Shown: piece by piece, positions 2,523-26,081 of the stretch
Numbering within the stretch: the stretch's first letter is position 1
How the letters are laid out: every line of letters starts with the position of its first letter
Origin: an uncultured Myxococcales bacterium
Lineage (GTDB): Bacteria; Myxococcota_A; Polyangia; JAAYKL01
Length of the DNA: 38,586 nt
Reading direction: 5' to 3'
NCBI GenBank assembly: GCA_964476305.1
Contig: CAYZAI010000002.1
Location: 1-38,586 of the forward strand
The notes under the pieces: generated by a model
The model's database searches: none
Told to the model about the DNA's origin: nothing
Seen by the model: the letters and a program-made list of their open reading frames with translations, nothing else
Program-made: the position numbers and the translations under genes

Positions 2523-4814
2523 TCAGCCCGCGCGGCGCTGGATCGATTCGATGGTGCAGGTCGTGTCGGACATCACCTCGGCGGCGTTGGCCTCGTCGGT
2601 GTCGATGTGCATCTCGAGCGTCCAGCCCGGGTGCACCCGCACCAGCACGTCGCCGAAGATCAGCGAGCGCTCGCCGGCCAGTTGCACCCGCACGAGATCC
2701 CTGTCGCGGATGCCGTAGGTCAGCGCGTGCTCGGGCGCCATGTGTATGTGGCGCAGGGCGCAGATCACGCCCTGGTCGAGCCGCACCTCGCCGGCGGTGC
2801 CGCGAAGCGTGAGGCCCGGGCTGCCGTCCAGATCGCCGGAGGCGCGGATCGGCGCGTCGATCCCCAGCTTGAACTCCTCGGTCCGCGAGATCTCGACCTG
2901 GGTCTCTGGGCGCACCGGGCCCAGCACCCGGACCCGATCCACCCGCCCCTTGGGCCCGACCAGGTCCACGGTCTCCTCGGCGGCGAACTGGCCCTTCTGC
3001 CTCAGCTCGTTGCGGGGAGTGAGGGTGCGCCCCGGGCCGAAGAGCGCCTCGACGTGCGCCTGGGAGAGGTGCACGTGGTGCGCCGAGACCGCCACCGGGA
3101 TCGGCCTGTCGCGCCGGGCGCGCAGCACGTCGGTCACGCCCGAGCGCTTCAGGGCGAGGCGGGTCTCCGCGGCGATGGCGCCCTCCTCGTCCGTGGGCAC
3201 GACCAGCACCGCCACCTTCGAGCCGTCGGTCGAGATGCAAAGCGGCTCCGCGCCCCGGGGACGCTCCCGGTTCCTGGCGGGATCGAGCTCCACGCCCAGG
3301 AACCCGAGCCCCTGGCAGATGCGCGAGCGGATGCCGGAGGCGTTCTCGCCGATGCCGCCGGTGAACACGATGGCGTCGAGGCCACCCATGGCCGCGGCGT
3401 AGGCACCGAGATACTTGCGCACCCGGTAGCAGAAGACCTGGATCGCCAGGAGCGCCCCGGGGTGGCCCGCATCGGCCGCCGACTCGAGCTCCCGCATGTC
3501 ACTGGAGAGGCCGGACAGGCCGAGCAGGCCCGAGCGCCTGTTGAGCAGTTCGTCCATCTCGCCATGGCCCATGCCGCCGCCGAGCAGGTGCAGCAGCAGG
3601 CCCGGGTCGATATCTCCGCAGCGGGTGCCCATGGCCAGCCCCTCCAGGGGTGTCAGGCCCATCGAGGTGTCTACCGAGCGGCCGTGATCGACGGCGGTCA
3701 CGGACGAGCCGTTGCCCAGGTGGCAGGTCACCAGCTCGAGGGAGCCGGCCGGGCGGCCCAGGAATCGGCAGGCCGTCTCGGCGACGTACTTGTGGCTGGT
3801 TCCATGGAAACCGAAGCGCCGCAGCATCCGCTGGTCCGCGAAGTCCCGGGGCAGAGCATACCGCCAGGCGTGTTCGGGCATCGTCATGTGGAACGCCGTG
3901 TCGAACACGCCGACCTGGGGTACCCCCGGCGGCAGGAGGCGGCGGCAGAGCTCGATGCCCAGCAGGTTGATCGGGTTGTGCAGCGGCGCGAGCACCGAGA
4001 CCCGCCGCATCTCCCCGATCACGTCGTCGTCGATCAGCGTGGCCTCGGTGAAGCGTGTGCCTCCGTGCACGGTGCGGTGGCCCACCGCGGCGAGCTGCTC
4101 GAGTCGCTCGACGGCCCCGTGTTCCGGGCTGACCAAGAGGTCGAACACCGCTCGCAGGCCCGCCTCGTGGTCGTCAAACGCCTGGGTCCGCTCCACCTCG
4201 CCGGCGGGCCCCCTGTGGCGGATCCGCGAACCCGGAAGGCCGATCTTCTCGACCAGGCCCCCGGCCCGCCGCTGCTCGCCGACGAACAGCGCGTACTTGA
4301 TCGACGAACTGCCCAGGTTCAGCACGAGCACAGGCTGTTCGGCCGCCCCCCCGTTCCCTTCCTCCGGGAGCACCGTGCGCCGCGCCTCGTCGAGGGCGGC
4401 CCGCTCGCCGGGATCGTTGCCCCTTCGGGCCAGTCGCTCGGCCAGCAGCCGCGCCAGGGACCTCGCCGCCTGGGGCCGTCGGCCGATCTCCGCCGTCAGG
4501 GCGTCGTGGGGCACGTGCACCACGCGGCCGGGGCCGGCCGCGGTGAGCTCGGCGATGGCCGGCTCGCCGGTGAGCAGGCTCATCTCGCCCAGCACCTCCC
4601 CCGGCGCGATCTCCGCCCGCGCCCCGCCAGGGAGGGTCACGACCAGCCGGCCGCTCGCCACCACGCCCAGCGAATCGAGGCGCTCGCCGACGCGAACCAC
4701 CACCTGGCCCGTGCTGTAGTCCGTCACGCGCGCCGCGGACGCCAGGCGGTCGATAGCCTCGTCGTCGAAGTCGGCCAGCGCCTTCACCTCGCGCAGCAGT
4801 GCCTTGACGTTCAT
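2523..4814 (-). CDS. ackA: tri-domain fusion: cyclic-nucleotide-binding-like domain + acetate kinase + PduL-type phosphate acyltransferase
   Basis: ATG at 4814 with GGAGG 8 nt upstream. Residues 1-125 are CNB-like (GEVLGEMSLLTGEPAIAELTA). Residues 161-560 carry acetate kinase motifs VLNLGSSSIKYALF, HRTVHGG, APLHNP, FDTAFH, FHGTSH, CHLGNGSS, FTGGIGEN and PTDEE. Residues 575-763 carry the duplicated PduL motif SAHHVHLS and ALRHIHMA. The listed 1261-aa ORF extends further upstream as an antisense shadow of the next gene. Confidence 0.85.
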   Translation of the reverse strand: MNVKALLREVKALADFDDEAIDRLASAARVTDYSTGQVVVRVGERLDSLGVVASGRLVVTLPGGARAEIAPGEVLGEMSLLTGEPAIAELTAAGPGRVVHVPHDALTAEIGRRPQAARSLARLLAERLARRGNDPGERAALDEARRTVLPEEGNGGAAEQPVLVLNLGSSSIKYALFVGEQRRAGGLVEKIGLPGSRIRHRGPAGEVERTQAFDDHEAGLRAVFDLLVSPEHGAVERLEQLAAVGHRTVHGGTRFTEATLIDDDVIGEMRRVSVLAPLHNPINLLGIELCRRLLPPGVPQVGVFDTAFHMTMPEHAWRYALPRDFADQRMLRRFGFHGTSHKYVAETACRFLGRPAGSLELVTCHLGNGSSVTAVDHGRSVDTSMGLTPLEGLAMGTRCGDIDPGLLLHLLGGGMGHGEMDELLNRRSGLLGLSGLSSDMRELESAADAGHPGALLAIQVFCYRVRKYLGAYAAAMGGLDAIVFTGGIGENASGIRSRICQGLGFLGVELDPARNRERPRGAEPLCISTDGSKVAVLVVPTDEEGAIAAETRLALKRSGVTDVLRARRDRPIPVAVSAHHVHLSQAHVEALFGPGRTLTPRNELRQKGQFAAEETVDLVGPKGRVDRVRVLGPVRPETQVEISRTEEFKLGIDAPIRASGDLDGSPGLTLRGTAGEVRLDQGVICALRHIHMAPEHALTYGIRDRDLVRVQLAGERSLIFGDVLVRVHPGWTLEMHIDTDEANAAEVMSDTTCTIESIQRRAG

Positions 4815-4902
4815 GCAGAAGACCTCCGGTTTCGCTTCTCCGGACCGATCTTTTTCACCTTCCCGCGGCCGGATGCAAGCCGGGAATGGCGGCCGCGTTC
4901 CC

Positions 4903-4931
4903 TTGCGCGAGTGGGACAACTCGTCTAGTAT
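4903..4931 (+). promoter_or_regulatory. sigma70-like promoter TTGCGC-N17-TAGTAT; the -10 ends 9 nt before ATG 4941, a possible leaderless transcript
   Basis: Hexamers read directly. There is no purine-rich SD between the -10 and the ATG (tccccggtcgATG). Confidence 0.35.
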
Positions 4932-4940
4932 CCCCGGTCG

Positions 4941-6314
4941 ATGAACGCCCCACCCAAGCTGCTCACGGCCCTTCTCGGCCTCGCGGTCGCCGGGTGCCTG
5001 CCCGACACCGGCGGCATCGATCCGCCGCTCGACCGGCTGATCTTCCCGGTGGGCCTCGCCATCACCGCGGACGACAGCCGCCTGCTGGCCGTCAATTCCA
5101 ACTTCGATCTCGAATACAATTCCGGGACGCTGACCGCCCTCGACATCAGCGACCTCGCCTCGGCCCTCACCGCCGACACGGCCGAGGTCAGTCCGGACGG
5201 CCGTTTCGTCTTCATCGATGACGGCGCGCTGATCATCGAGAGCGAGACGATCCGGGTCGGGGCCTTCGCCAGTGACCTCGGCCTTTCGCCCCGGGGCGAT
5301 CGGGCGATGATCCCGGTGCGCGGCGAGCGCGCGATCCTGCTGGTCGACGTGGGCGATCCCGCGACCGGTGACTTCCTGGACTGCGGCGAGGGTGACGACC
5401 GGCGCTGCGACGGTGCCCACCGGGTCGAGAGCAACGACCGCTTCACGCTGCCCATAGAGCCCTACGAGGTTGCCGCCCTCGATTACGTCGAGCCGTCGTC
5501 CGGCGAGCTCACCACGCTCGGCTTCGCCTCCCACCTGGCCGGGGGCGAGGTCTCGCTGTTCGTGGTGCAGGACGGCGCCGCCGGCAGCCAGAACGACGGC
5601 GAGCTGATCGGTGTGCTCAGCGGCGTGGTCCGCGAGGCCAGCGGCATCGCGGTCAACCCCGTGAGCAAGGAGATCTACGTCGCCGGGCGGTCCGAGGACG
5701 CCCGCGTGGCGGTGCTGTCGGTCCACACGGATTCGACCAACGGACAGTACTCCCACGAGCCCTTCTTCAGGAAGGTCAGCCACATCGATATCGGCGCCGA
5801 GATGTACGCCGGGACGAATGCCAGGGGCCTCGCCGTCACCGACGACGGATCCTACGCCTACCTGGCGACCCGAACGCCGGCGGCGCTCCTGGAGCTGGAC
5901 GCCGAGGCCCACGAGCTGACCGACATGACCACGGTCTGCACGGATCCCTCGATCGTCGAGCTGTTCCGGAGCGACGGAGACACGGCTGATCCGGCGGACG
6001 ACGTCACCTACGCCTTCGTGCTCTGCTTCCTGACCGGGCAGGTATTCATCGTCGATACCGAGGCGCTGATCGTCCGCGCCGTGCGCTCGGTGGGAAGCAG
6101 CCCCCACGCAATCGCGTTCGATCGCACGCGCAGACGCGCCTTCGTCTCCAATTTCCGCGAATCGACAATCAGCGTGATCGAGATCGAGCCTCCGCTGTTC
6201 GACCTGCTGCGCTACCGGCCCGGACCGGGGGAGTGGCTGTACGACGAGGACGATCCCGAGCAGAGCTACATCGTCAAGCTCGGCAAGCCGCGCTTGCCCA
6301 AGGGGCACACCTGA
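4941..6314 (+). CDS. lipoprotein with YVTN/YncE-like beta-propeller repeats
   Basis: Signal peptide plus lipobox LAVAGC. Repeated blade-like segments: LAITADDSRLLAVNSN, GIAVNPVSKEIYVAG, GLAVTDDGSYAYLAT and PHAIAFDRTRRRAFVSNFRESTISVIEI. Confidence 0.75.
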   Translation: MNAPPKLLTALLGLAVAGCLPDTGGIDPPLDRLIFPVGLAITADDSRLLAVNSNFDLEYNSGTLTALDISDLASALTADTAEVSPDGRFVFIDDGALIIESETIRVGAFASDLGLSPRGDRAMIPVRGERAILLVDVGDPATGDFLDCGEGDDRRCDGAHRVESNDRFTLPIEPYEVAALDYVEPSSGELTTLGFASHLAGGEVSLFVVQDGAAGSQNDGELIGVLSGVVREASGIAVNPVSKEIYVAGRSEDARVAVLSVHTDSTNGQYSHEPFFRKVSHIDIGAEMYAGTNARGLAVTDDGSYAYLATRTPAALLELDAEAHELTDMTTVCTDPSIVELFRSDGDTADPADDVTYAFVLCFLTGQVFIVDTEALIVRAVRSVGSSPHAIAFDRTRRRAFVSNFRESTISVIEIEPPLFDLLRYRPGPGEWLYDEDDPEQSYIVKLGKPRLPKGHT

Positions 6315-9877: not shown

Positions 9878-11992
9878 TCAGCCCTTCTTGAAAATATCGA
9901 AGAGCCCGGACGGCTCGTCGGAGCGTTGTCGCATCCTCATGATGCGCAACTGGCGGGCCGCATCGATGTGCCTCGGGTCGATCTCCAGGGTCTTCTCGTA
10001 GAACACCTCGGCGCGTTTCGTGTCCTTCTCGCGCTGGAAGTAGTTGGCCAGCAGGTAGGTGAAGATCGGCTCGTTCTCGTGCTCCTTGTGCAGCCCCCGC
10101 AACTCCTGTTCGAAGGAGACCCGCTCGGCGCCGGGGTTGGCCAGGTATGCTGCCCATGCCCGATAGGCGAGGAATCGCAAGTCGGGCTTCAGATCGTGGG
10201 CACGGCAGAAATGCGCGGCCGCCCCGCGGAAGTCACCTTCCCTGAGCAGGGCCTGCCCTTCCTGGGCCAGCCGCTCGGCTTCGGGGCCGGGTTCGCTGTC
10301 GCCTCGATTGTCGTCGCCGCGAGGCGGGTGGTAGGACGGGACGCTCGTCCCGGGCTCACCCTCGAGCTTGGCGAGATAGCGGCGCCGGGCCTCGGGATCG
10401 GCCAGGGTCTGATAGGCCGCGTGCACCCGCAGGTACAGCTCCTCCAGCTTCTCGTGGACCAGCCCCGCGTCGATGCCCACCAGCGTGTCGGGGTGGTAGC
10501 GCTGCTGCCGGACCTGGAAGGCCGCGGCGATCTCAGAATGGGAAGCCTCCTGCGACACGCCGAGCAGCGTGAAGTAGTCCGCCGTGCGCAGTTTCAGGTA
10601 CTCGGCCATCAGGTGCATCGCGGGCTCCTCCATCCGCGGCGGCGCCGGCGGCTCCGAGGTGAGCTCTCCGGCGATGAGCCCGGCGATGTCGGTCGTCTGC
10701 TCGACATCACTCTGCCTGGCGGTCGAGTCGTCTGCGAAGCCGATGACCTCCATCACGGACAGGGCGAAGATCGTCGGCGGCACCAACTCCGGTTGTGGCA
10801 CGGCCGCGACGATCTCGGCAGGAGCAAGGCCCTTGCGCACGAGCTGCAGGATGCGGATTTCACTGGTCGTGAGAGCGAGTTGCCGATCGTCATAGGGCGA
10901 TTCCCCCAGGACGGCGCAGCGCATTCTCGTACCGAGGTCGACATGCCGCCCAACCTGCGCGGCGGACCAGTGGTGCTGGCAGCCCGAGAGAATGATGCGC
11001 CCCGGCGGCATCCGGGCGATGATCACGTCGTCCTTCCAGCTGTCCCCGTCGATCACCTGGTAGCGGCCGCTGTACCAGCCGAAGGCGCCGATGACCTTGT
11101 CCATCAGGTGGTTTTCGAGCTCACGGAAGAGATCGTGGGGTCCGAGCAGGCCGAGCTTGAGCAGCACCTCGCCGAAGCGCCGACCGGTGTGCGTCATCTC
11201 GGTGATGGCCCGGGCGTTCTGCTCCTGGCCGATGATCCCCCGGCGCACGAGGTGGGCGCCGAGGGTCTCCTCGGGAATCGACGACTCCGCGTAGACCGGG
11301 ATGCCCCCGACGAAGAAGATCGACCGGTCCAGCCCATCGGCCGCGAGGTTCAGCCGGCAAGTGCGCTGCTCGGAAAAGACGGCGTGGAGCAGGTGCGGGA
11401 GCGGCACGTCCTCGATGGCGCCGCGAGCCGGCAGCTGGCCTCGAGGTCCACCCATGGAGAGGGAGGGGGCGGCGGTGTCCGGGGAATCGGGAACGCGGGC
11501 AACTGCGGAAGCAGCGGTTCGTGGGGCCCCCCCCGGCGGCGCGGGTCCGGTCCGGCCGGTTGCCTGACGCATCACCGGTCGCCGGGGCTGAATACCGGAC
11601 GCGTGCCGGCCGGCATCCTCGACGATGGACCTTACCTGCTCGAGCAACGCGCGCAGCTGGAAGGGCTTCTGTATGAACCCCGAGACCTGGAGCTGCGACG
11701 TCTCCGCCTGGAGATCCCTTGTCTGCAGCACGGCGCTCATCATCACGACCGGGATCCGCTGCCCTTCGGGGCTGGCTCGCAGGCGCTTGAGAAACTCGAT
11801 GCCGTCGAGCTTCGGCAGCAGGACGTCGAGCAGGATCAGATCGGGTTTTTCGGCGGCCCGCTCGAGGCCGGACAAGCCGTCAGCGGCTTGCAGGATCTCG
11901 ATCCCGTGGGAGCCGAGATATGTCGTGACGACCCGCCTGAGATCATCGTTGTCCTCGACGACGAGCACCCTGGGCTGCTGGCTGGCTTGCAT
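9878..11992 (-). CDS. response-regulator receiver + PATAN/DUF4388 + DnaJ (J) domain + TPR protein
   Basis: Receiver: VLVVEDN, DLILLDVLLP, VMMSAV and FIQKPF. DUF4388-like: LPHLLHAVFSEQRTCRLNL...FFVGGIPVYAES. J domain: DYFTLLGVSQEASHSEIAAAFQVRQQRYHPD, with HPD present. The C-terminus has TPR-like helices. ATG 11992 is preferred over the TTG at 12040. Confidence 0.8.
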   Translation of the reverse strand: MQASQQPRVLVVEDNDDLRRVVTTYLGSHGIEILQAADGLSGLERAAEKPDLILLDVLLPKLDGIEFLKRLRASPEGQRIPVVMMSAVLQTRDLQAETSQLQVSGFIQKPFQLRALLEQVRSIVEDAGRHASGIQPRRPVMRQATGRTGPAPPGGAPRTAASAVARVPDSPDTAAPSLSMGGPRGQLPARGAIEDVPLPHLLHAVFSEQRTCRLNLAADGLDRSIFFVGGIPVYAESSIPEETLGAHLVRRGIIGQEQNARAITEMTHTGRRFGEVLLKLGLLGPHDLFRELENHLMDKVIGAFGWYSGRYQVIDGDSWKDDVIIARMPPGRIILSGCQHHWSAAQVGRHVDLGTRMRCAVLGESPYDDRQLALTTSEIRILQLVRKGLAPAEIVAAVPQPELVPPTIFALSVMEVIGFADDSTARQSDVEQTTDIAGLIAGELTSEPPAPPRMEEPAMHLMAEYLKLRTADYFTLLGVSQEASHSEIAAAFQVRQQRYHPDTLVGIDAGLVHEKLEELYLRVHAAYQTLADPEARRRYLAKLEGEPGTSVPSYHPPRGDDNRGDSEPGPEAERLAQEGQALLREGDFRGAAAHFCRAHDLKPDLRFLAYRAWAAYLANPGAERVSFEQELRGLHKEHENEPIFTYLLANYFQREKDTKRAEVFYEKTLEIDPRHIDAARQLRIMRMRQRSDEPSGLFDIFKKG

Positions 11993-12039
11993 CTGAGCGC
12001 ACCAGTCAACTACTATCGCGCGAGGAGGTGAAGGGATCA

Positions 12040-12681
12040 ATGGATATCAAAAAGACGATTATTGTCACGATGGTTGCAGGACTTCTCCTCGGCTGCGGGC
12101 CGACCTGCCCGGAAGTCAAGGCCGGGCTCGACGCCACCGCCGCGGTGACCGGAGACGTCACCCGGGTCAACGAACTTGTCGCTCGGCGCAAAGCCGTGAT
12201 GGCCGAGGCGGAGCAGGGGGGGGTGGGGACCTTCGAGATGCAGCGTCTCAAGTTCTCGGTGACGGCCTATGAAATGGCCATCGCGACCGAGGCCCGGGTC
12301 ATCAAGGCTTCGCCGCGGTTCGAGGGCGCGGCCTCCTACGACGAGGCCGCCCCGCGGATCAACGAGTTCCGGTGCTACGTCGACAAGGTACTCGCCCGAG
12401 ACGGAAACCTCGTCTCAGACGGGGTCGGAGAGTCCCTGCGGGCCTACAAGGCCGAGATCGACGGTCTGCTGGATCGCGACGGCGCGCTGAGTTCGGCCGA
12501 GATCAGGGCCTACTTCGAGGAGGGCATCGCGGCGCCCCCGCCTCTGGAGAAGGAGGCGGAAGTCTCCGAAGGCGAGGGGGCGGATGTCGACGGGGCGGCC
12601 GGGGAGGACGAGGAGACCGGGGACGACGAGAGCGAGGAGAACGGCGGCTACTACCGGGATCCGGATGACGAGGAAACCTGA
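12040..12681 (+). CDS. lipoprotein with a helical body and a polyacidic C-terminal tail
   Basis: GAGGAGG SD lies 11 nt before ATG 12040. Lipobox LLLGC-G. The C-terminus is EGEGADVDGAAGEDEETGDDESEENGGYYRDPDDEET. GTG 12028 is an alternative start. Confidence 0.7.
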   Translation: MDIKKTIIVTMVAGLLLGCGPTCPEVKAGLDATAAVTGDVTRVNELVARRKAVMAEAEQGGVGTFEMQRLKFSVTAYEMAIATEARVIKASPRFEGAASYDEAAPRINEFRCYVDKVLARDGNLVSDGVGESLRAYKAEIDGLLDRDGALSSAEIRAYFEEGIAAPPPLEKEAEVSEGEGADVDGAAGEDEETGDDESEENGGYYRDPDDEET

Positions 12682-21848: not shown

Positions 21849-22388
21849 ATGCGAGACGCGACAAAGGTGCGGATCATCCTCGCCTTCCTGCTCCTCGCCA
21901 TGTGCCACCACGTGGGCCCGACCGACGGCGCGGGCGCGCCGGACGGGGGGTCCGACGCCGACAGCGACATCGACGCCGATGTGGACGACGACGTCGACGG
22001 CGACGCGGACGGCGACGGCGATGCGGACGGGGACGGCGACGGGGACGGGGATGCCGACGGGGACACCGACGACCCTCCGCCCTGCCCGATGGACAGCGGC
22101 TGGCCCTGCCCCTGCGGCATGGGGACGCTGGTGTGCCAGGACGGGTCCCTCTGCGCCGAGCTTTCCGAACCCGTCATGGGCCGCTTCTGCGCCGCTCCCT
22201 GCTCCGGCGAGGGAGGGGAGTGCCCGCCCACGGACTACGAGGCCGAGGGTCAGTGCCTGCTGTCGGATGGCCTGGAATCCTTCTATTGCATCTTGGTCTG
22301 CGAGGACGAGGACGAGTGTCCGCCGGACCAGCTCTGCGTGGAGGTCGGGGGGGTCCTGGTCTGCCTGCCCGAGTGGACCTGGGACTGA
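21849..22388 (+). CDS. small secreted protein: polyacidic (Asp-Gly/Ala/Val)n tract followed by a Cys-rich domain
   Basis: ATG 21849 lies 4 nt after the buk stop, with GGGAGG upstream. Signal peptide VRIILAFLLLAMC. D-rich tract, then about 14 Cys (PPCPMDSGWPCPCG...CEDEDECPPDQLC). Confidence 0.7.
   Translation: MRDATKVRIILAFLLLAMCHHVGPTDGAGAPDGGSDADSDIDADVDDDVDGDADGDGDADGDGDGDGDADGDTDDPPPCPMDSGWPCPCGMGTLVCQDGSLCAELSEPVMGRFCAAPCSGEGGECPPTDYEAEGQCLLSDGLESFYCILVCEDEDECPPDQLCVEVGGVLVCLPEWTWD
21954..22071. repeat. imperfect GAC-GNN repeat encoding the Asp-rich tract
   Basis: Direct reading: gacggcgacgcggacggcgacggcgatgcggacggggacggcgacggggacggggat... Confidence 0.8.
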
Positions 22389-22457: not shown

Positions 22458-22485
22458 TTGCTTCCCGACAATTCCGATCCATAAT
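22458..22485 (+). promoter_or_regulatory. sigma70-like promoter TTGCTT-N16-CATAAT upstream of the cytochrome operon
   Basis: Hexamers read directly. A 6-bp stem-loop (22490-22509) and a GGAGGA SD (22515-22520) follow. Confidence 0.3.
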
Positions 22486-22527
22486 AGCCGGTGCAACTTG
22501 AACTGCACCTTTTCGGAGGAACCCGAC

Positions 22528-23700
22528 ATGACTCATCGACAGCGGCGCCCCGGCGTCGCGGTGGCGGTCCTGCTCGGCGCGGCCCTGCTGGCGCCGATCT
22601 TCGGCGGCGTTCTGGCGGACGACGCGGGCGTCGACGAGGATTGGTCTGCCTTGAAGGACGGCCGGGAGGTCTTCGAGGCGGCCTGCGCCACCTGTCACGG
22701 CGGCCGTGGCACGGGCACCGACCGGGCGATCCGGGGCTTCGCCGTCAAACCGCCGGACTTCACCGACTGCGAGTTCACGTCGCGGGAGATGACGGTGGAC
22801 TGGGTCGGCATCGCCACCCTGGGCGGGCCGGTCAAGGCCTTCGACCCGCTGATGCCGGCCTTCGGCAAGGTGCTCTCCCGGGAGCAGATCGAGGCCGCGG
22901 TGGGTCACGTCAAGGCCTTCTGCCCTGAGAAGCGCTGGCCCCCCGGCGAGTTCAACCTGCCCAAGGCGCTGAACACGGGCAAGGCCTTCCCCGAGAACGA
23001 GGTGGCCTGGGAGATCACGTCGACGGTGGAGGAGCCCGTGGCGATCCACGGCAAGTTCGTCGTCGCGCGGCGGGTGGGCGCGCGGCACCAGCTCGAGGTG
23101 GCCATCCCGGGCGGCGCCCAGCAGCTCGATCACACGTCGCCCGACGGAGAGGCAGGGTACCGCTGGGGAGAGGGCGTCGGGGACATCGCCCTGGCCTGGA
23201 AGGGCGTGCTCTGGCACCACCTGCCCGCGGGCACCATCGGCAGCATGGCCCTGGACGTGTTCCTGCCCACGGGCGACGTGGCGGACGGCTTCGGCAAGGG
23301 GATCTTCTCCTTCGAGCCGGCCCTGCTGATCGGACAGATCATCCCTGGAGTGGGGTTCGTCCAGCTCCAGGGCGGGGCCGAGCTCTCGACGGATCCCGGC
23401 GTGGCCGGGCACGCCCTGTTCTGGCGCGGCGCCGTGGGGCGCACCTTCCGCCAGAACGGGGGCTTCGGCCGCTCGTGGTCGCCGATGGTGGAGATCCTAG
23501 GCGCCACCGAGATCGACGACGGCGTGTCCCCGGACTGGGACATCGTGCCCCAGCTCCAGGTGGCCCTCAGCACGCGCCAGCACGTGCGGCTGGGCCTCGG
23601 GGCGCTGCTGCCCCTGACCCGCTTCGAGGACCGCCAGATCGAGGTGCAGGCCTACCTCATCTGGGACTGGTACGACGGCGGCTTCGGGGAAGGATGGTGA
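22528..23700 (+). CDS. monohaem class I cytochrome c domain fused to a predicted ~12-strand outer-membrane beta-barrel
   Basis: GGAGGA SD lies 7 nt before ATG 22528. Signal peptide VAVAVLLGAALLAPIFGGVLA. One CATCH motif plus a PLMPAFG Met-ligand-like segment. About 270 aa of alternating amphipathic strands follow, ending in an aromatic C-terminus (GFGEGW). Confidence 0.75.
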   Translation: MTHRQRRPGVAVAVLLGAALLAPIFGGVLADDAGVDEDWSALKDGREVFEAACATCHGGRGTGTDRAIRGFAVKPPDFTDCEFTSREMTVDWVGIATLGGPVKAFDPLMPAFGKVLSREQIEAAVGHVKAFCPEKRWPPGEFNLPKALNTGKAFPENEVAWEITSTVEEPVAIHGKFVVARRVGARHQLEVAIPGGAQQLDHTSPDGEAGYRWGEGVGDIALAWKGVLWHHLPAGTIGSMALDVFLPTGDVADGFGKGIFSFEPALLIGQIIPGVGFVQLQGGAELSTDPGVAGHALFWRGAVGRTFRQNGGFGRSWSPMVEILGATEIDDGVSPDWDIVPQLQVALSTRQHVRLGLGALLPLTRFEDRQIEVQAYLIWDWYDGGFGEGW

Positions 23701-23704
23701 TGCC

Positions 23705-25396
23705 ATGAACGGACTCACGCCCCGCTTCATCGCAATCCCGGGCGCGGTCCTGGGCGCGGTCCTGTTCGCGGCCCTGGCCCCGGCCGGGGACCCCGGACCC
23801 GACCCGGAAGAGCTGTTCGAGACCTCGCACTCGTGCATCGCCTGCCACGGCGGGATGACCACCGCGGGCGGGCAGGACGGCTCCATCGGCACCCGGTGGC
23901 GTTCGACGGTCATGGCCAATGCGGCCAGGGATCCCTACTGGCAGGCCTCGGTGCGGCGCGAGGTCGGCGATCACCCGGCGGCGGCCTCGGCCATCGAGGA
24001 CAAGTGCAGCACGTGTCACATGCCCATGGCCCGGTTCGCGAGGCGCGAGCGGGGCGGCACGGGCGAGATCCTGTCGCTGGTCCAGGCCGGCCCCGTGGAC
24101 ACCGGCACCCGCATCGGCGCCCTGGCCGAGGACGGGGTCTCGTGCGCGGTCTGCCACCAGATCGAGCCCGGCAACTTCGGCCGCCAGGAGAGCTTCGGCG
24201 GCGGCTTCACCGTGGACACGAGCCGGCCCCGAGGCGAGCGCCAGGTCCACGGCCCCTTCGACATCGGCGACGGCACGGCCCACGTGATGAGCTCGGCCAC
24301 GGGCTTCCTGCCGCAGCAAGGAGACCACGTGAGGCGATCCGAGCTGTGCGGCATCTGCCACACGCTGTATACCCACGCCCTCGATGCGGACGGCAACGAG
24401 CTCGCCGAGCTGGCGGAGCAGGCGCCCTACCTCGAGTGGCTGCACAGCGACTACGCCGAGGCCCAGTCGTGCCAGGACTGCCACATGCGGGCGGTGGGCG
24501 AGCCGGTGCCCCTGTCCAGCGTGCTCGGCAAGCCGAGGGAGGGCGTGGTAGAGCACGTCTTCCGCGGCGGGAACTTCCTGCTCGTCCGGCTGTTGGGCGC
24601 GCACCGCCACCGCCTCGGGGTCGAGGCTCTGCCCGGGGAGCTGGCCGCGAGCGAGCGCGCGACCCTCGAGCACCTGCAGTCCTCCGCGGCGGGCGTCGCC
24701 GTCGATGCCGGGGCCGCGATCGTCGCGGACGGTCGCCTGGTGTTTCCCGTGGCGGTCGAGAACACGGCCGGGCACAAGCTGCCCACGGCCTACCCCTCGC
24801 GCCGGGCCTGGCTCCACGTGGTCGTGCGCGACGCGAACGGCTCCCTGGTGTTCGAGTCCGGCGCCCTGCGCGAGGACGGCTCCATCGCGGGAAACGACAA
24901 CGACGAGGACGCCGCGCGCTTCGAGCCGCATCACGCGGAGATCTCGGATCCGGGCGAGGTGCAGATCTACGAGTCGATCATGGGCACGCCGGAGGGCGCG
25001 GTGACCACCGGGCTGCTGAAGGCCGCGGTCTACCTCAAGGACAACCGGGTCCTCCCGTTCGGCTTCGACAAGGCCACCGCGGATCGGGACGTCGCCGTGG
25101 CCGGCGCCGCCCTCGAGGACGACGACTTCACCGGGGGCAGTGACCGGGTGCTCTACAAGGTGCCCGTGGACGGCACGGCGGGCCCGTTCTCGGTGACCGC
25201 CGAGCTTCACTACCAGCCCATCGGCCACCGCTGGGCGACGAACCTCGCGGACGCGAAGGGCGACGAGCCGCGCCGGTTCGTGGCCATGTACCGCGCCTTC
25301 CCGGGGAAGGACACCGCCGTCCTCTTCGCCTCGGCCACCGCGACCATCGCCGCTCCGGCGCCACCGCCCGAGCCCGTTCCGGAAACCGGACAGTAG
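23705..25396 (+). CDS. secreted pentahaem c-type cytochrome with a large non-haem C-terminal domain
   Basis: Starts 4 nt after the previous stop. Has a signal peptide. Five CXXCH motifs: CIACH, CSTCH, CAVCH, CGICH and CQDCH. The C-terminal ~300 aa lack haem motifs. Confidence 0.85.
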   Translation: MNGLTPRFIAIPGAVLGAVLFAALAPAGDPGPDPEELFETSHSCIACHGGMTTAGGQDGSIGTRWRSTVMANAARDPYWQASVRREVGDHPAAASAIEDKCSTCHMPMARFARRERGGTGEILSLVQAGPVDTGTRIGALAEDGVSCAVCHQIEPGNFGRQESFGGGFTVDTSRPRGERQVHGPFDIGDGTAHVMSSATGFLPQQGDHVRRSELCGICHTLYTHALDADGNELAELAEQAPYLEWLHSDYAEAQSCQDCHMRAVGEPVPLSSVLGKPREGVVEHVFRGGNFLLVRLLGAHRHRLGVEALPGELAASERATLEHLQSSAAGVAVDAGAAIVADGRLVFPVAVENTAGHKLPTAYPSRRAWLHVVVRDANGSLVFESGALREDGSIAGNDNDEDAARFEPHHAEISDPGEVQIYESIMGTPEGAVTTGLLKAAVYLKDNRVLPFGFDKATADRDVAVAGAALEDDDFTGGSDRVLYKVPVDGTAGPFSVTAELHYQPIGHRWATNLADAKGDEPRRFVAMYRAFPGKDTAVLFASATATIAAPAPPPEPVPETGQ

Positions 25397-25434
25397 CCGT
25401 CCTTCGGCTGCCGGGGGGCTGGCACAAAGACCTT

Positions 25435-25447
25435 TTATGGTCCATAA
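25435..25447. promoter_or_regulatory. perfect 6-1-6 palindrome TTATGG-T-CCATAA, candidate antitoxin operator overlapping a CATAAT -10-like hexamer
   Basis: Read directly, 33 nt upstream of the antitoxin ATG. Type II TA operons are typically autoregulated at such palindromes. Confidence 0.4.
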
Positions 25448-25479
25448 TCGGTCCTATCTGCGCTGCGGGGAGGAAGAAG

Positions 25480-25755
25480 ATGCGCTTTTCGTCCCAGGTC
25501 AGGTCGGTGAGCTACCTCAAGGCCAACGCCGCCGACGTGCTGCTCGATCTCGCCGCGCGGCGCGAGCCGCTGGTCATCACCCAGAACGGGGAGGCCCGGG
25601 CCGTGCTGCAGGACGTCGCCTCCTACGAGGAGACGCAGGAGCTGCTGGCGCTGCTCCGGCTCCTGGCGCTGGGAGCCCGCGACATCGAGGCCGGCGCGGT
25701 CCGGCCCGTGGCCGACGTCGTGCGCCGGCTGCGCGCCCGGGGGACCGACGCCTGA
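25480..25755 (+). CDS. type II antitoxin, Phd/YefM family
   Basis: GGGGAGGAAG SD. N-terminal VSYLKANAADVLLDLAARREPLVITQNGEARAVLQDVASYEE matches the Phd/YefM pattern. Its stop overlaps the toxin start (ATGA-type coupling, tgATG). Confidence 0.85.
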   Translation: MRFSSQVRSVSYLKANAADVLLDLAARREPLVITQNGEARAVLQDVASYEETQELLALLRLLALGARDIEAGAVRPVADVVRRLRARGTDA

Positions 25756-26081
25756 TGCGCCACGCGGTGCTGCTCACGGCGGGCGCCGAGCGCGATCTGG
25801 AAGCGATCTACGACTACATCGCCGAGGCCGAGTCGAAGCGGAGCGCGGATCACGTGCTGGATCGGCTGCTGAAGGTCGCGGACAGCCTCTCGCGCTTCCC
25901 GGAGCGCGGAGCCGTGCCGCGGGAGCTTCGCGCGCTGGGAATCGGGGAGTACCGGCAGGTCTTCTTCAAGCCCTACCGGGTGGTCTACCGCATCGTCGGG
26001 CGGGACGTGGTGATCGTGCTGATCGCGGACGGCCGGCGGGAGATGCTGTCGCTGCTCGAGCGCCGCCTCCTCGCCCCGTGA
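25755..26081 (+). CDS. parE: type II toxin, ParE/RelE family
   Basis: 108 aa. LTAGAERDLEAIYDYIAE, FPERGAVPREL and YRVVYRIVGRDVVIVLIADGRR are typical of ParE/RelE (PF05016-like). Confidence 0.85.
   Translation: MRHAVLLTAGAERDLEAIYDYIAEAESKRSADHVLDRLLKVADSLSRFPERGAVPRELRALGIGEYRQVFFKPYRVVYRIVGRDVVIVLIADGRREMLSLLERRLLAP

Follow-up and report, generated by a model that had tools for sequence, protein, structure and literature searches.

A conserved gene pair for a cytochrome c–outer-membrane barrel fusion and a pentahaem cytochrome, a possible redox cassette of the cell envelope

What does a monohaem cytochrome covalently fused to a small outer-membrane barrel do next to a pentahaem cytochrome? 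The question is raised by two adjacent genes, hereafter A and B, in a 38,586-nucleotide stretch of DNA from an uncultured Myxococcales bacterium (the window). A sequence-only reading had proposed that A passes electrons to or from the pentahaem B, which is a reasonable inference from gene linkage. The analysis reported here led us to a proposal that, taken as a whole, we give even chances: A and B may together constitute a self-contained redox cassette of the cell envelope, encoded by just two genes, in which an outer-membrane-tethered relay cytochrome (A) serves a catalytic pentahaem protein (B).

Domain organisation of protein A

Gene A starts with an ATG codon and comprises the following features.

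22515..22519, plus strand: Shine-Dalgarno-like GGAGG, 8 nt 5' of the ATG (sequence)
22528..23700, plus strand: gene A, cytochrome c::12-strand outer-membrane barrel fusion, 390 aa including stop (ORF list; AF2)
22528..22617, plus strand: signal peptide, aa 1-30, MTHRQRRPG, a hydrophobic stretch, then VLA/DD (sequence; the cleavage site is our reading)
22645..22923, plus strand: class I monohaem cytochrome c domain, aa 40-132 (Pfam, invariant alignment columns, AF2 helices)
22924..22998, plus strand: linker, aa 133-157, PEKRWPPGEFNLPKALNTGKAFPENE (conservation; pLDDT about 86-95)
22999..23697, plus strand: 12-stranded beta-barrel, aa 158-390, divergent COG4313/Phenol_MetA_deg type, ending in DGGFGEGW (AF2, Foldseek, PF13557)

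The signal peptide, the single CXXCH (C53ATCH57), the PLMPAFG segment at residue 107 and the aromatic C-terminus previously read from this ORF were all confirmed in the sequence, M109-P110 being the axial Met segment. Residues 41-127 matched Cytochrome_CBB3 (PF13442, 35.5 bits, cut-off 27) and Cytochrom_C (PF00034, 26.5 bits, cut-off 21.3), and the AF2 model (pLDDT 88.7, pTM 0.81) has a helical domain at residues 45-129; the assignment of a class I cytochrome c to the N-terminus, both Pfam matches exceeding their cut-offs, was thus borne out. In the family alignment Cys81 of this domain is invariant and Cys132 near-invariant, and the two possibly form a disulfide. Conservation within the family is lowest in the signal peptide (majority-residue fraction 0.27), the N-terminus being of the Sec type, with a lipobox in none of the 45 family members.

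C-terminal to the helical domain, the model contains 13 strand elements at residues 158-379, and all 12 strand segments that had been named from the sequence overlap predicted strands. The top Foldseek matches in the PDB were exclusively 12-stranded barrels: FapF (5o68, E 1.6e-9), a COG4313 channel (4rl8, E 5e-6), NanC and KdgM. The C-terminal ~250 residues therefore correspond to the small outer-membrane barrel that had been anticipated. Its suggested kinship with MetA-pathway or transporter-type barrels also holds for the family, as PF13557 was matched by 25 of the 45 members (best E 1.4e-9), the window protein itself staying below threshold (E 0.16).

More than 611 full-length homologues of A were found. 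The most conserved segment is the linker: its majority-residue fraction is 0.73, whereas the cytochrome domain has 0.64 and the barrel 0.59. By these values linker and barrel are unusually conserved for an outer-membrane protein. In addition, this barrel clade occurs almost only in cytochrome-fused form: a phmmer search with the barrel as query reached almost only fusions. Both observations suggest that the barrel is more than an anchor. As the N-terminus of COG4313 channels is inserted in the lumen (PMC4493636), the linker of A probably folds into the barrel lumen in the same way, a position assigned by analogy.

Protein B, a pentahaem cytochrome with an Ig-like domain

The ORF noticed 4 nt downstream, with a signal peptide, proved to be as described. 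It encodes a protein of 563 aa, stop included, with more than 7899 homologues.

23705..25396, plus strand: gene B, Sec-exported pentahaem cytochrome of the c552/ExtKL (PHC) fold, putatively translationally coupled to A (ORF list, junction sequence, AF2, Foldseek)
23804..24685, plus strand: haem-binding helical cap, aa 34-327 (AF2, invariant columns, sequence)
24686..25348, plus strand: Ig-like beta-sandwich domain, aa 328-548 (AF2, pLDDT above 90 over most of the domain; invariant columns)
24770..24805, plus strand: candidate active-site loop, G356-HKLPTAYPSR-R367 (motif count, alignment)

The N-terminus of B is of the Sec type and has no lipobox. Of the earlier description of B as secreted, Sec export stands; nothing points to passage beyond the periplasm. 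The five CXXCH motifs lie at residues 44, 101, 147, 215 and 256 and contain all the cysteines of the protein. The AF2 model (pLDDT 85.3, pTM 0.86) consists of a helical cap and a beta-sandwich, in agreement with the pentahaem partner and haem-free C-terminal domain expected from the sequence. Exactly four non-motif histidines are invariant for the five haems: His208 and His284 in the cap, His357 and His409 in the sandwich. The latter domain also carries a conserved insertion with the elements GNDNDxD, FEPH, VQIYE, TTGLL and KDNRxLPxGF. The segment AGHKLPTAYPSRRAWLHV begins at residue 355, and 39 of 40 family B members carry GHKLP[TS]AYPSRR, with core residues that do not vary in the alignment.

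The sole significant Foldseek match in the PDB was 5ze8 (E 1.9e-14, TM 0.72 on target). Because this only significant structural relative is a pentahaem c552, we place B in the ExtKL/MccSep pentahaem superfamily. Profile-to-PDB alignments recovered 5ze8 (E 8e-4) and, weakly and over a short motif, MccSep 9wt8 (E 0.048); an H-x2-P-x3-P register is common to the three proteins, and Tyr363 of B aligns with the catalytic Sec325 of MccSep in the weak 9wt8 alignment. Against the NCBIfam model for MccSep/ExtKL, NF040886, B scored 29.9 for a cut-off of 250.

Several observations make B look like an enzyme: (i) identity across phyla exceeds 50%, with long invariant motifs, (ii) the four-His/five-haem pattern is that of MccSep, in which four haems are bis-His and one is catalytic (bioRxiv 10.1101/2025.11.18.688581), and (iii) the PHC family has independently been rated potentially catalytic (PMC11976967). 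B could nevertheless be merely an electron carrier or store, as T. tepidum c552, its closest relative of solved structure, would suggest.

Linkage and distribution of the pair

The TGA of A ends at 23700 and the ATG of B starts at 23705, leaving four bases between them, and a ribosome-binding site lies inside the 3' end of gene A. B is directly downstream on the same strand at 70 of 80 A-centred genomic loci; conversely, an A-like gene is found 2-4 nt upstream at all six B-centred loci. The two genes are thus strongly co-conserved, a point on which the earlier reading had staked its case. The pair is present in at least 578 species genomes from many diderm phyla, including those of the heterotrophs Halomonas and Kineobactrum, and is embedded in unrelated housekeeping contexts in different genomes. 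No third gene is conserved near A-B, any other gene being common to at most 16 of the 80 loci. With hundreds to thousands of full-length homologues for both proteins and a gene order kept across phyla, the architecture is not a product of chance, and the pair lies outside any characterised family.

At nine loci A occurs without B, and A can therefore work without it. In the Gemmatimonadota loci of this kind the next gene encodes a membrane-anchored cupredoxin-like protein, which replaces B, so that the cytochrome of A adjoins different periplasmic redox proteins, which favours a relay role for it.

A proposed relay, its alternatives and known systems

In the proposed mechanism, A would be held in the outer membrane by its 12-stranded COG4313/FapF-type barrel, and the 25-residue linker would keep the His/Met class I cytochrome domain in the periplasm, at the barrel mouth. 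B would be a soluble periplasmic protein with the 'mushroom' build of c552 and MccSep/ExtKL, in which a helical cap with five haems sits on an Ig-like stem. Docking to A, it would act as the catalytic partner: four haems may serve as bis-His wires and one, haem 2 by analogy, as a reaction centre, the invariant loop GHKLPTAYPSRR forming its lining and Tyr363 taking the place of the MccSep selenocysteine. As B does not have the catalytic residues of MccSep (a non-motif Cys and Sec), its chemistry must differ. The tethered cytochrome of A would be the dedicated one-electron relay between B and general periplasmic electron carriers, and the barrel may admit, or release into the outer membrane, a small substrate or product of B. 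Drawing on related systems, our leading guesses for this substrate are a compound of hydrophobic or sulfur type and, alternatively, a small N/S oxyanion; as COG4313 channels let hardly any hydrophilic solutes through (PMC4493636), oxyanions would not obviously pass.

The barrel of A could instead be a mere anchor. Closed, it would concentrate a c-type donor below the outer membrane, and B would be a detoxifying reductase or peroxidase (e.g., for H2O2, NO, nitrite or hydroxylamine) with a substrate supplied by general porins. We consider this possible, if rather unlikely. Periplasmic peroxidases and N-oxide reductases usually receive their electrons from class I His/Met cytochromes, and housekeeping surroundings such as those of A-B are frequent for stress genes. 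Multihaem reductases of the NrfA type have an active site of Tyr, His and Arg plus Ca2+, which the invariant Tyr/Lys/Arg/His loop and the GNDNDxD motif of B recall. COG4313 barrels are also largely occluded by their N-terminal segment (PMC4493636). However, a mere anchor leaves unexplained both the conservation of linker and barrel and the near-exclusive cytochrome fusion of the barrel clade, tethering by a lipid or in the inner membrane would cost less, and no conserved oxidative or nitrosative stress regulator is found near A at the 80 loci.

A metal oxidase resembling Cyc2 appears improbable. Fe(II), another soluble metal ion or a redox shuttle would enter the barrel and be oxidised at the haem of A, with B as a periplasmic carrier or capacitor toward the respiratory chain, as Cyc1 follows Cyc2. 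A shares the overall logic of Cyc2, the next gene of the operon encodes a multihaem cytochrome, and, according to record titles, iron- or sulfide-rich sediments and springs are the source of some loci; yet the hosts include ordinary heterotrophs and the conservation of B is atypical of a simple carrier. The COG4313 channel type is, moreover, poorly permeable to ions (PMC4493636), and the full globular cytochrome domain of A (~95 residues) is far too large to fit inside a 12-strand barrel, with its lumen of ~10-12 Å, so that the haem would sit on the periplasmic side. Membership of A in Cyc2 itself was rejected: the Cyc2 motif PXFAR[QK][TY] occurs in 0 of 45 family A members, and its 12-strand barrel matches FapF/COG4313 rather than the 16-strand OprO/P type.

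It is very improbable that A is an autotransporter or FapF-type exporter that displays its own cytochrome on the cell surface or exports and assembles B as an extracellular cytochrome filament for electron transfer outside the cell: the amyloid exporter FapF is the best structural match of the barrel, COG4313 barrels are akin to autotransporter beta-domains (PMC4493636), autotransporters likewise place an N-terminal domain and a linker ahead of a 12-strand barrel, and the c552 fold has been tied to archaeal cytochrome nanowires (PMC11976967), but c-type cytochromes acquire haem and fold in the periplasm and the folded domain exceeds the lumen, B carries a bulky Ig-like domain and has a periplasmic tetramer, MccSep, as relative, the 80 A loci have no secretion genes in common, fap-like or other, and the alternative partner in Gemmatimonadota, with its N-terminal hydrophobic anchor-like segment, points to the periplasm. 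Extracellular electron transfer, another suggestion of the sequence-only reading, is likewise unsupported, since one haem lying outside a barrel of 12 strands cannot bridge the membrane; B is without a lipobox and no secretion system is adjacent.

How does a tethered relay serving a catalytic pentahaem protein compare with described systems? A monohaem cytochrome fused to a barrel had been held to fall outside known models, wrongly: Cyc2 of Acidithiobacillus and Mariprofundus is such a fusion (PMC8406198). Like A, it has a signal peptide, an N-terminal domain with one CXXCH and a covalently attached barrel, and is encoded beside periplasmic cytochromes. Unlike A, it joins an OprO/P-like porin of 16 strands to a cytochrome segment that is very short and bears the diagnostic PXFAR[QK][TY] motif, and its oxidation of Fe(II) has been demonstrated (PMC8406198), whereas A combines 12 strands of the COG4313/FapF type with a complete class I domain resembling cbb3 subunit III. 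The relationship is one of analogy, not homology. The COG4313/Phenol_MetA_deg channels (Pput2725, TcpY, SphA; PDB 4RL8) and FapF are 12-stranded like A and have an N-terminal segment before strand 1; however, canonical COG4313 channels have no cytochrome and are implicated in the uptake of hydrophobic molecules (PMC4493636), FapF exports amyloid subunits, and A represents a divergent clade with about 130 extra N-terminal residues.

On the side of B, c552 of Thermochromatium tepidum (5ZE8), a soluble low-potential cytochrome with a suggested tie to sulfur metabolism (PMC11976967), shares the five-haem domain, the Ig-like domain and the H-x2-P-x3-P loop, but it is smaller (about 385 residues resolved versus 563), only 15% identical, devoid of the GNDND...KDNR insertion and has Ala at the Tyr363 position. 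MccSep/ExtKL of Geobacter (PDB 9WT8; NF040886), a polysulfide reductase, has the same five c-haem helical cap and Ig-like stem, with a stem loop reaching catalytic haem 2, and the role of its U325 has been described; it is periplasmic, and its authors call the outer-membrane route of its substrate unknown (bioRxiv 10.1101/2025.11.18.688581). In contrast to B, with Tyr at the Sec325 position and no non-motif Cys, it has a Cys239-ligated haem. ExtKL clusters with the porin gene extI, which puts a pentahaem protein of this fold near an outer-membrane barrel (PMC11976967), although ExtI is a large separate porin and not a 12-strand cytochrome-fused barrel.

Similarly, PtdA, a pentahaem cytochrome noted as having this fold, adjoins the porin PtdB in ptdABCDEFG, which like A-B is widespread in environmental bacteria (bioRxiv 10.1101/2023.11.21.568154). 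There, however, the two genes stand in the opposite order, PtdB is reported to be an ordinary porin, and five further conserved genes (for a flavoprotein, a tetrahaem, an Fe-S, a ferric-reductase-like and a decahaem protein) have no counterpart around A-B; B was compared with PtdA by description only. Finally, MtrCAB, PioAB and Pcc resemble A-B in joining an outer-membrane barrel and c-type cytochromes in one operon, but build 20- to 26-strand porins round a membrane-spanning multihaem wire (PMC8406198), whereas A-B has 12 strands and one attached haem outside the lumen.

Organization and distribution of the cassette

Gene A, which encodes the cytochrome-barrel fusion, and gene B, which encodes the pentahaem cytochrome, are co-directional and lie in a window of ~70% G+C, in which one neighbouring gene was assigned through synteny with L084, the locus of an 86%-identical relative:

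22528-23700, + strand, gene A, 390 aa, GGAGG 8 nt 5' of the ATG
23705-25396, + strand, gene B, 563 aa
20732-21844, acetate-kinase-family gene, assigned through synteny with L084

The TGA stop codon of A ends at position 23700 and the ATG of B is at position 23705, leaving the 4 bases between the two genes that the sequence-only reading had reported; a purine-rich stretch lies within the 3' end of A, and judged by its sequence the junction has the layout of translational coupling. Both proteins start with a Sec-type signal peptide and have no lipobox. The residue-level details of that reading were all recovered: in A, CATCH at 53, PLMPAFG at 107 and a C-terminal Trp; in B, five CXXCH motifs at 44, 101, 147, 215 and 256, and AGHKLPTAYPSRRAWLHV at 355. 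The scan for promoters and terminators around the operon was uninformative: the sole sigma-70-like site (25419-25448) lies between B and the downstream toxin-antitoxin pair, and two terminator-like hairpins within B were regarded as chance. An exact-sequence look-up of protein A returned no identical entry on record, and its homologue in the syntenic L084 locus stood in for it.

We then considered how far the pairing extends. When one genome was scanned for each GTDB species, at least 578 relatives of A were obtained, from which 80 loci were kept. B is located directly 3' of A on the same strand in 70 of these (tblastn alignment gaps of -6 to 288 nt); nine of the other ten lack B, and in one the contig ends too early to judge. 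Sampling from the B side gave the same picture: a Cytochrome_CBB3 protein of 370-392 aa is encoded 2-4 nt upstream in 6/6 B homologues, which were picked for their long contigs and include those of Kineobactrum sediminis, Halomonas sp. ZH2S and a Gemmatimonadota metagenome-assembled genome (MAG). The partnership of fusion and pentahaem genes is thus supported from both sides. In an all-against-all clustering of six-frame ORFs, no third gene beyond A, B and their antisense shadows was common to more than 16 of the 80 loci, and the flanks of the cassette are unrelated from genome to genome. As no third gene is widely common, an extended operon on the Mtr, Ext or ptd pattern was rejected (ptdABCDEFG being the cluster in which the pentahaem PtdA lies beside the porin PtdB; bioRxiv 10.1101/2023.11.21.568154).

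By the labels of the records, the cassette occurs in Myxococcota, Acidobacteriota (including Vicinamibacterales, Bryobacterales and Aminicenantes), Gemmatimonadota, Desulfobacterota, Planctomycetota, Rhodothermales/Balneolaceae (Bacteroidota-related), Chitinispirillaceae and Gammaproteobacteria. It is also present in MAGs labelled as monoderms, namely 'Eubacteriales' (L007, L008, L010, L017, L026, L027, L041), 'Bifidobacteriaceae' (L069, L073) and 'Acidimicrobiia' (L051), which probably reflects a wrong label or a mis-binned contig. B falls into thousands of protein clusters, and the public annotation of A and B is merely 'cytochrome c', 'transporter' or 'hypothetical protein'.

Several neighbours deserve mention in their own right. 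Directly 5' of A, a gene at ~21860-22388 (+) encodes a small exported protein in which a long acidic D/G repeat (DADGDGDADGDGDGDGDADGD) precedes a Cys-rich C-terminal half. Pfam gave no match for it; L084 has a hypothetical gene at this position, but there is no conservation across the 80 loci. Directly 3' of B lie a Phd/YefM-type antitoxin ORF, 25480-25755 (+), and an overlapping ParE-type toxin ORF, ~25752-26081 (+), both named from the Pfam labels of the same, syntenic pair in L084 rather than of the window ORFs. Toxin-antitoxin genes are also found near the cassette in Kineobactrum (L081), and their proximity is probably a coincidence. The window flanks further hold MutS, GyrA and FtsY, which are housekeeping or unrelated neighbours, as well as small proteins for which no family matched. 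Farther away, a 1261-aa ORF at 2523-6308 (-) starts with ~500 residues without match, after which come domains for cyclic-nucleotide binding (530-607), acetate kinase (660-1046, complete) and PTAC phosphate acyltransferase (1071-1245); it represents either a regulated Pta-Ack fusion of an unusual kind or an ORF that was called too long. A 720-aa protein, 9878-12040 (-), shows an uncommon arrangement of response-regulator receiver, DUF4388, DnaJ J-domain and TPR repeats. Finally, one Gemmatimonadota MAG (L086:7701-9458, - strand) has, after the cassette and in the opposite orientation, genes for a small cytochrome c and for a Ferric_reduct/NAD_binding_1 membrane protein, an arrangement that occurs once and echoes the ferric-reductase-like PtdF of the ptd cluster.

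Architecture of protein A

Residues 41-127 of A match PF13442 Cytochrome_CBB3 (35.5 bits, cut-off 27) and PF00034 Cytochrom_C (26.5 bits, cut-off 21.3), and both families are matched by all 45 aligned members of the A family. No NCBIfam family scored above its cut-off for A or for B, and a single-sequence PDB search with A returned generic cytochrome c matches only. C53, C56, H57 and M109-P110 are invariant in the 45 sequences, and M109 would be the axial haem ligand. Cys81 is also invariant and Cys132 near-invariant, and the two possibly form a disulfide. Many charged residues of the barrel are invariant as well, and the invariant positions include R182, Q188, E190, D219, K225, R300 and R350-Q351-H352.

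An AF2 model built on the 45 homologues (pLDDT 88.7, pTM 0.81) places the cytochrome part in helices 45-129 and contains 13 strand elements between residues 158 and 379. As the elements 209-217 and 221-231 look like one kinked strand, we count A as 12-stranded. All 12 strand segments picked by eye in the sequence-only reading overlap a strand element of the model, and the chain ends on an aromatic residue, W390. The top Foldseek matches in the PDB are 12-stranded barrels: FapF (E 1.6e-9), the COG4313 channel Pput2725 (4rl8, E 5e-6), NanC and KdgM. At the sequence level, PF13557 Phenol_MetA_deg matches the window protein below threshold (residues 215-271, 12.5 bits against a cut-off of 22, E 0.16); when members were scanned singly, however, 25 of the 45 homologues matched it at E <= 1e-3, the best at 1.4e-9. 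The barrel of A therefore appears to be a divergent member of that family, which, with the fold matches to 4rl8 and FapF, supports the MetA-pathway/transporter-type barrel that had been suggested.

The segment that joins the two domains, residues 133-157, is the most conserved part of the protein, with a majority-residue fraction of 0.73 against 0.64 for the cytochrome and 0.59 for the barrel, and these 25 residues are modelled with confidence. The solved COG4313 channel has ~14 residues ahead of strand 1 that enter the lumen from the periplasmic side and nearly close it; its authors favour hydrophobic molecules as its cargo, with a possible lateral route into the membrane (PMC4493636). In sequence, the linker of A is placed like this lumen-inserted segment and, by analogy, it may also be placed like it in space, inside the lumen.

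When the barrel of A alone was used as query, almost only cytochrome-fused proteins were retrieved, both from a word-indexed database and with phmmer run exhaustively against 1.84 billion representatives (500 matches at E <= 1e-3). No clear unfused, barrel-only sister group of A appeared among these matches. The four short matches that were inspected by sequence are gene calls with missing ends that keep cytochrome remnants.

Fold and candidate active site of protein B

The five CXXCH motifs are present in 40 of 40 B members, and B has no cysteine outside them. Its AF2 model (pLDDT 85.3, pTM 0.86) comprises a helical haem-binding cap (34-327) and a beta-sandwich (~328-548), and has one significant fold match in the PDB, the Thermochromatium tepidum pentahaem cytochrome c552 (5ze8; Foldseek E 1.9e-14, TM 0.72 on target). 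Sequence libraries gave weak multihaem matches, and a single-sequence PDB search found 5ze8 marginally (E 0.04), so that the relationship was established only by the fold search. Run against the PDB, a profile built from 40 B homologues matched 5ze8 at E 8e-4 and, weakly (E 0.048), 9wt8, the Geobacter polysulfide reductase MccSep/ExtKL, the matching region being the loop that opens the beta-sandwich. The corresponding NCBIfam model, NF040886, scored 29.9 bits against B, under its cut-off of 250.

This loop holds the candidate active site. B, c552 and MccSep have the register H-x2-P-x3-P in common, and the residue preceding the second proline is an invariant tyrosine (Tyr363) in B, an alanine in c552 and the catalytic selenocysteine U325 in MccSep. 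The motif GHKLP[TS]AYPSRR was counted in 39 of 40 B members. In MccSep, haems 1, 3, 4 and 5 are bis-His, whereas haem 2 is the active site, is ligated by Cys239 and is reached by U325 from the Ig-like domain (bioRxiv 10.1101/2025.11.18.688581). Both the Sec/Cys at the U325 position and the haem-2 ligand Cys239 are absent from B, C239 aligning with a variable column of the family; as B has no non-motif cysteine, it cannot have the chemistry of MccSep in common. There are exactly four invariant non-motif histidines in B (H208, H284, H357 and H409), the number that would be needed for four bis-His haems and one special haem. B is more than 50% identical across phyla and has further long invariant motifs (GNDNDxD, FEPH, VQIYE, TTGLL and KDNRxLPxGF), features that suggest an enzyme rather than a carrier. 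The family called 'PHC', in which c552, ExtKL and Gsu2801 have been grouped, is itself classed as potentially catalytic (PMC11976967). We also considered B as an outer-membrane lipoprotein, which was rejected as a general feature: a lipobox-like string occurs in 4 of 40 members and not in the window protein.

Proposed role and comparison with known systems

We hold the architecture of the two proteins and the pairing of their genes to be close to certain. When the strand number of an outer-membrane barrel is even, both of its ends face the periplasm. Because of this, because a folded holo-cytochrome of ~95 residues is too big for a lumen of 10-12 A, and because its partners are periplasmic, the haem domain of A would sit where its barrel opens to the periplasm. 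One haem at this place cannot conduct electrons through the membrane, which excludes an MtrAB-like wire. The tethered cytochrome would exchange electrons with B, and the barrel would admit a substrate or release a product, or act as an anchor only.

Five Gemmatimonadota loci without B carry another gene in its place, downstream of A, with a product of ~230-270 aa:

L035:11051-11890, + strand, candidate partner gene
L042:11072-11887, + strand, candidate partner gene
L046:9582-10697, + strand, candidate partner gene
L047:10929-11885, + strand, candidate partner gene
L059 about 11100-11898, + strand, candidate partner gene

The product has an N-terminal hydrophobic anchor, a ...LHNV...CDIHGWM... 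motif whose ligand pattern is type-1-copper-like, and, at its C-terminus, a CarboxypepD_reg domain that scores under the Pfam cut-off. Its alignment with a Cu nitrite reductase (9cck) is weak (E 0.026), lies in the cupredoxin domain and takes in the His/Cys/His/Met copper ligands. It may be another redox partner for the tethered cytochrome. The occurrence of the A cytochrome beside two kinds of periplasmic redox protein fits the role of a periplasmic electron relay.

A His/Met class I cytochrome domain is normally of high potential, and T. tepidum c552, the closest solved relative of B, is a low-potential cytochrome. By analogy, such a combination would suit a B that oxidises a reductant, with electrons passing outward to the cytochrome c pool; it would equally suit the reduction of a high-potential oxidant. 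We favour a working channel, given the conservation of linker and barrel, the almost exclusively fused barrel clade, and the precedents of MccSep/ExtKL and PtdA: MccSep acts in the periplasm, where the outer-membrane route of its substrate is an open point, and the ExtKL and PtdA gene clusters also encode porins. We give roughly even odds to catalysis by B, and likewise to transport through the barrel, and the whole model of barrel-tethered relay, catalytic B and working channel stands, in our estimate, an equal chance of being right or wrong.

Three alternatives were weighed. The barrel could be an anchor only and B a detoxifying reductase, a reading that we consider rather unlikely; it leaves the conservation of the barrel unexplained. 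A Cyc2-like metal oxidase is improbable. Its general design fits, A having a signal peptide, a single CXXCH (45/45 members) and, with 390 aa, the length of at least 365 aa of Cyc2, the known Fe(II)-oxidising monohaem cytochrome-porin fusion; the defining features, however, fail. The Cyc2 motif PXFAR[Q/K][T/Y] just upstream of CXXCH (PMC8406198) is found in none of the 45 members, and the Cyc2 porin is 16-stranded and OprO/OprP-like, whereas A has ~12 strands and FapF, COG4313, NanC and KdgM as top folds. Export of the cytochrome or of B in the manner of an autotransporter or of FapF, which the fold matches of A suggest, conflicts with haem attachment and folding in the periplasm and is most improbable.

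Returning to the relay model with a working channel, the cassette could, as a tentative and still doubtful extension, be a new redox enzyme system that is coupled to the outer membrane and widespread among bacteria of soils and sediments. In it, a channel of the COG4313 type would pass a hydrophobic or sulfur-type substrate (elemental sulfur, polysulfide, or a quinone or phenolic shuttle) directly to B, B would be a new pentahaem enzyme with a tyrosine-based haem active site, and the channel-fused cytochrome would wire this enzyme to the respiratory chain. If B is an enzyme, the cassette could mark an unrecognised step of sulfur, nitrogen or organic redox cycling in soils and sediments. It is abundant (at least 578 species-level genomes) and structurally distinctive, yet only generically annotated. 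Its function is directly testable, since cultured, aerobic and easily grown hosts carry it (Kineobactrum sediminis, Halomonas sp. ZH2S and Lentisalinibacter sediminis).

The sequence-only reading had placed a monohaem cytochrome fused to a barrel outside the known models, a claim that falls with the precedent of Cyc2. If our reading is true, A represents a second, independently evolved fusion besides Cyc2, such fusions having arisen at least twice on different barrel scaffolds. In MtrAB, PioAB and Pcc systems, a porin of at least 20 strands sheathes a multihaem cytochrome, whereas the barrel of A is 12-stranded, and no large porin gene is conserved near the cassette in the 80 loci. FapF sits in a fapA-F operon with amyloid subunits, whereas only B is conserved beside A. 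Literature on PF13557/COG4313 with cytochromes, or on further cytochrome-porin fusions, led to canonical COG4313 channels, FapF and Cyc2 only, and no description was found of a class I cytochrome fused to a COG4313-type 12-strand barrel together with a large Tyr-loop PHC protein.

B itself has the PHC architecture, in which an alpha-helical domain carries the five CXXCH and an Ig-like beta-sandwich comes after it, and the coupling of a c552-fold pentahaem protein to an outer-membrane barrel is already noted for Ext and Ptd. By gene description, the likeness to ptd is that a pentahaem-plus-beta-sandwich gene adjoins an outer-membrane barrel gene; however, the order of A and B is opposite to that of ptdA and ptdB, and ptdC-G (flavoprotein, tetrahaem, Fe-S, ferric-reductase-like and decahaem) have no counterpart common to more than 16 of the 80 A loci. 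The A-B pair is the third case of a c552/ExtKL-fold pentahaem protein genetically coupled to an outer-membrane barrel. If the model is true, A is a candidate for the outer-membrane substrate route of PHC-type enzymes such as MccSep, and the pattern suggests a general solution for substrates that cross the outer membrane to a periplasmic multihaem enzyme.
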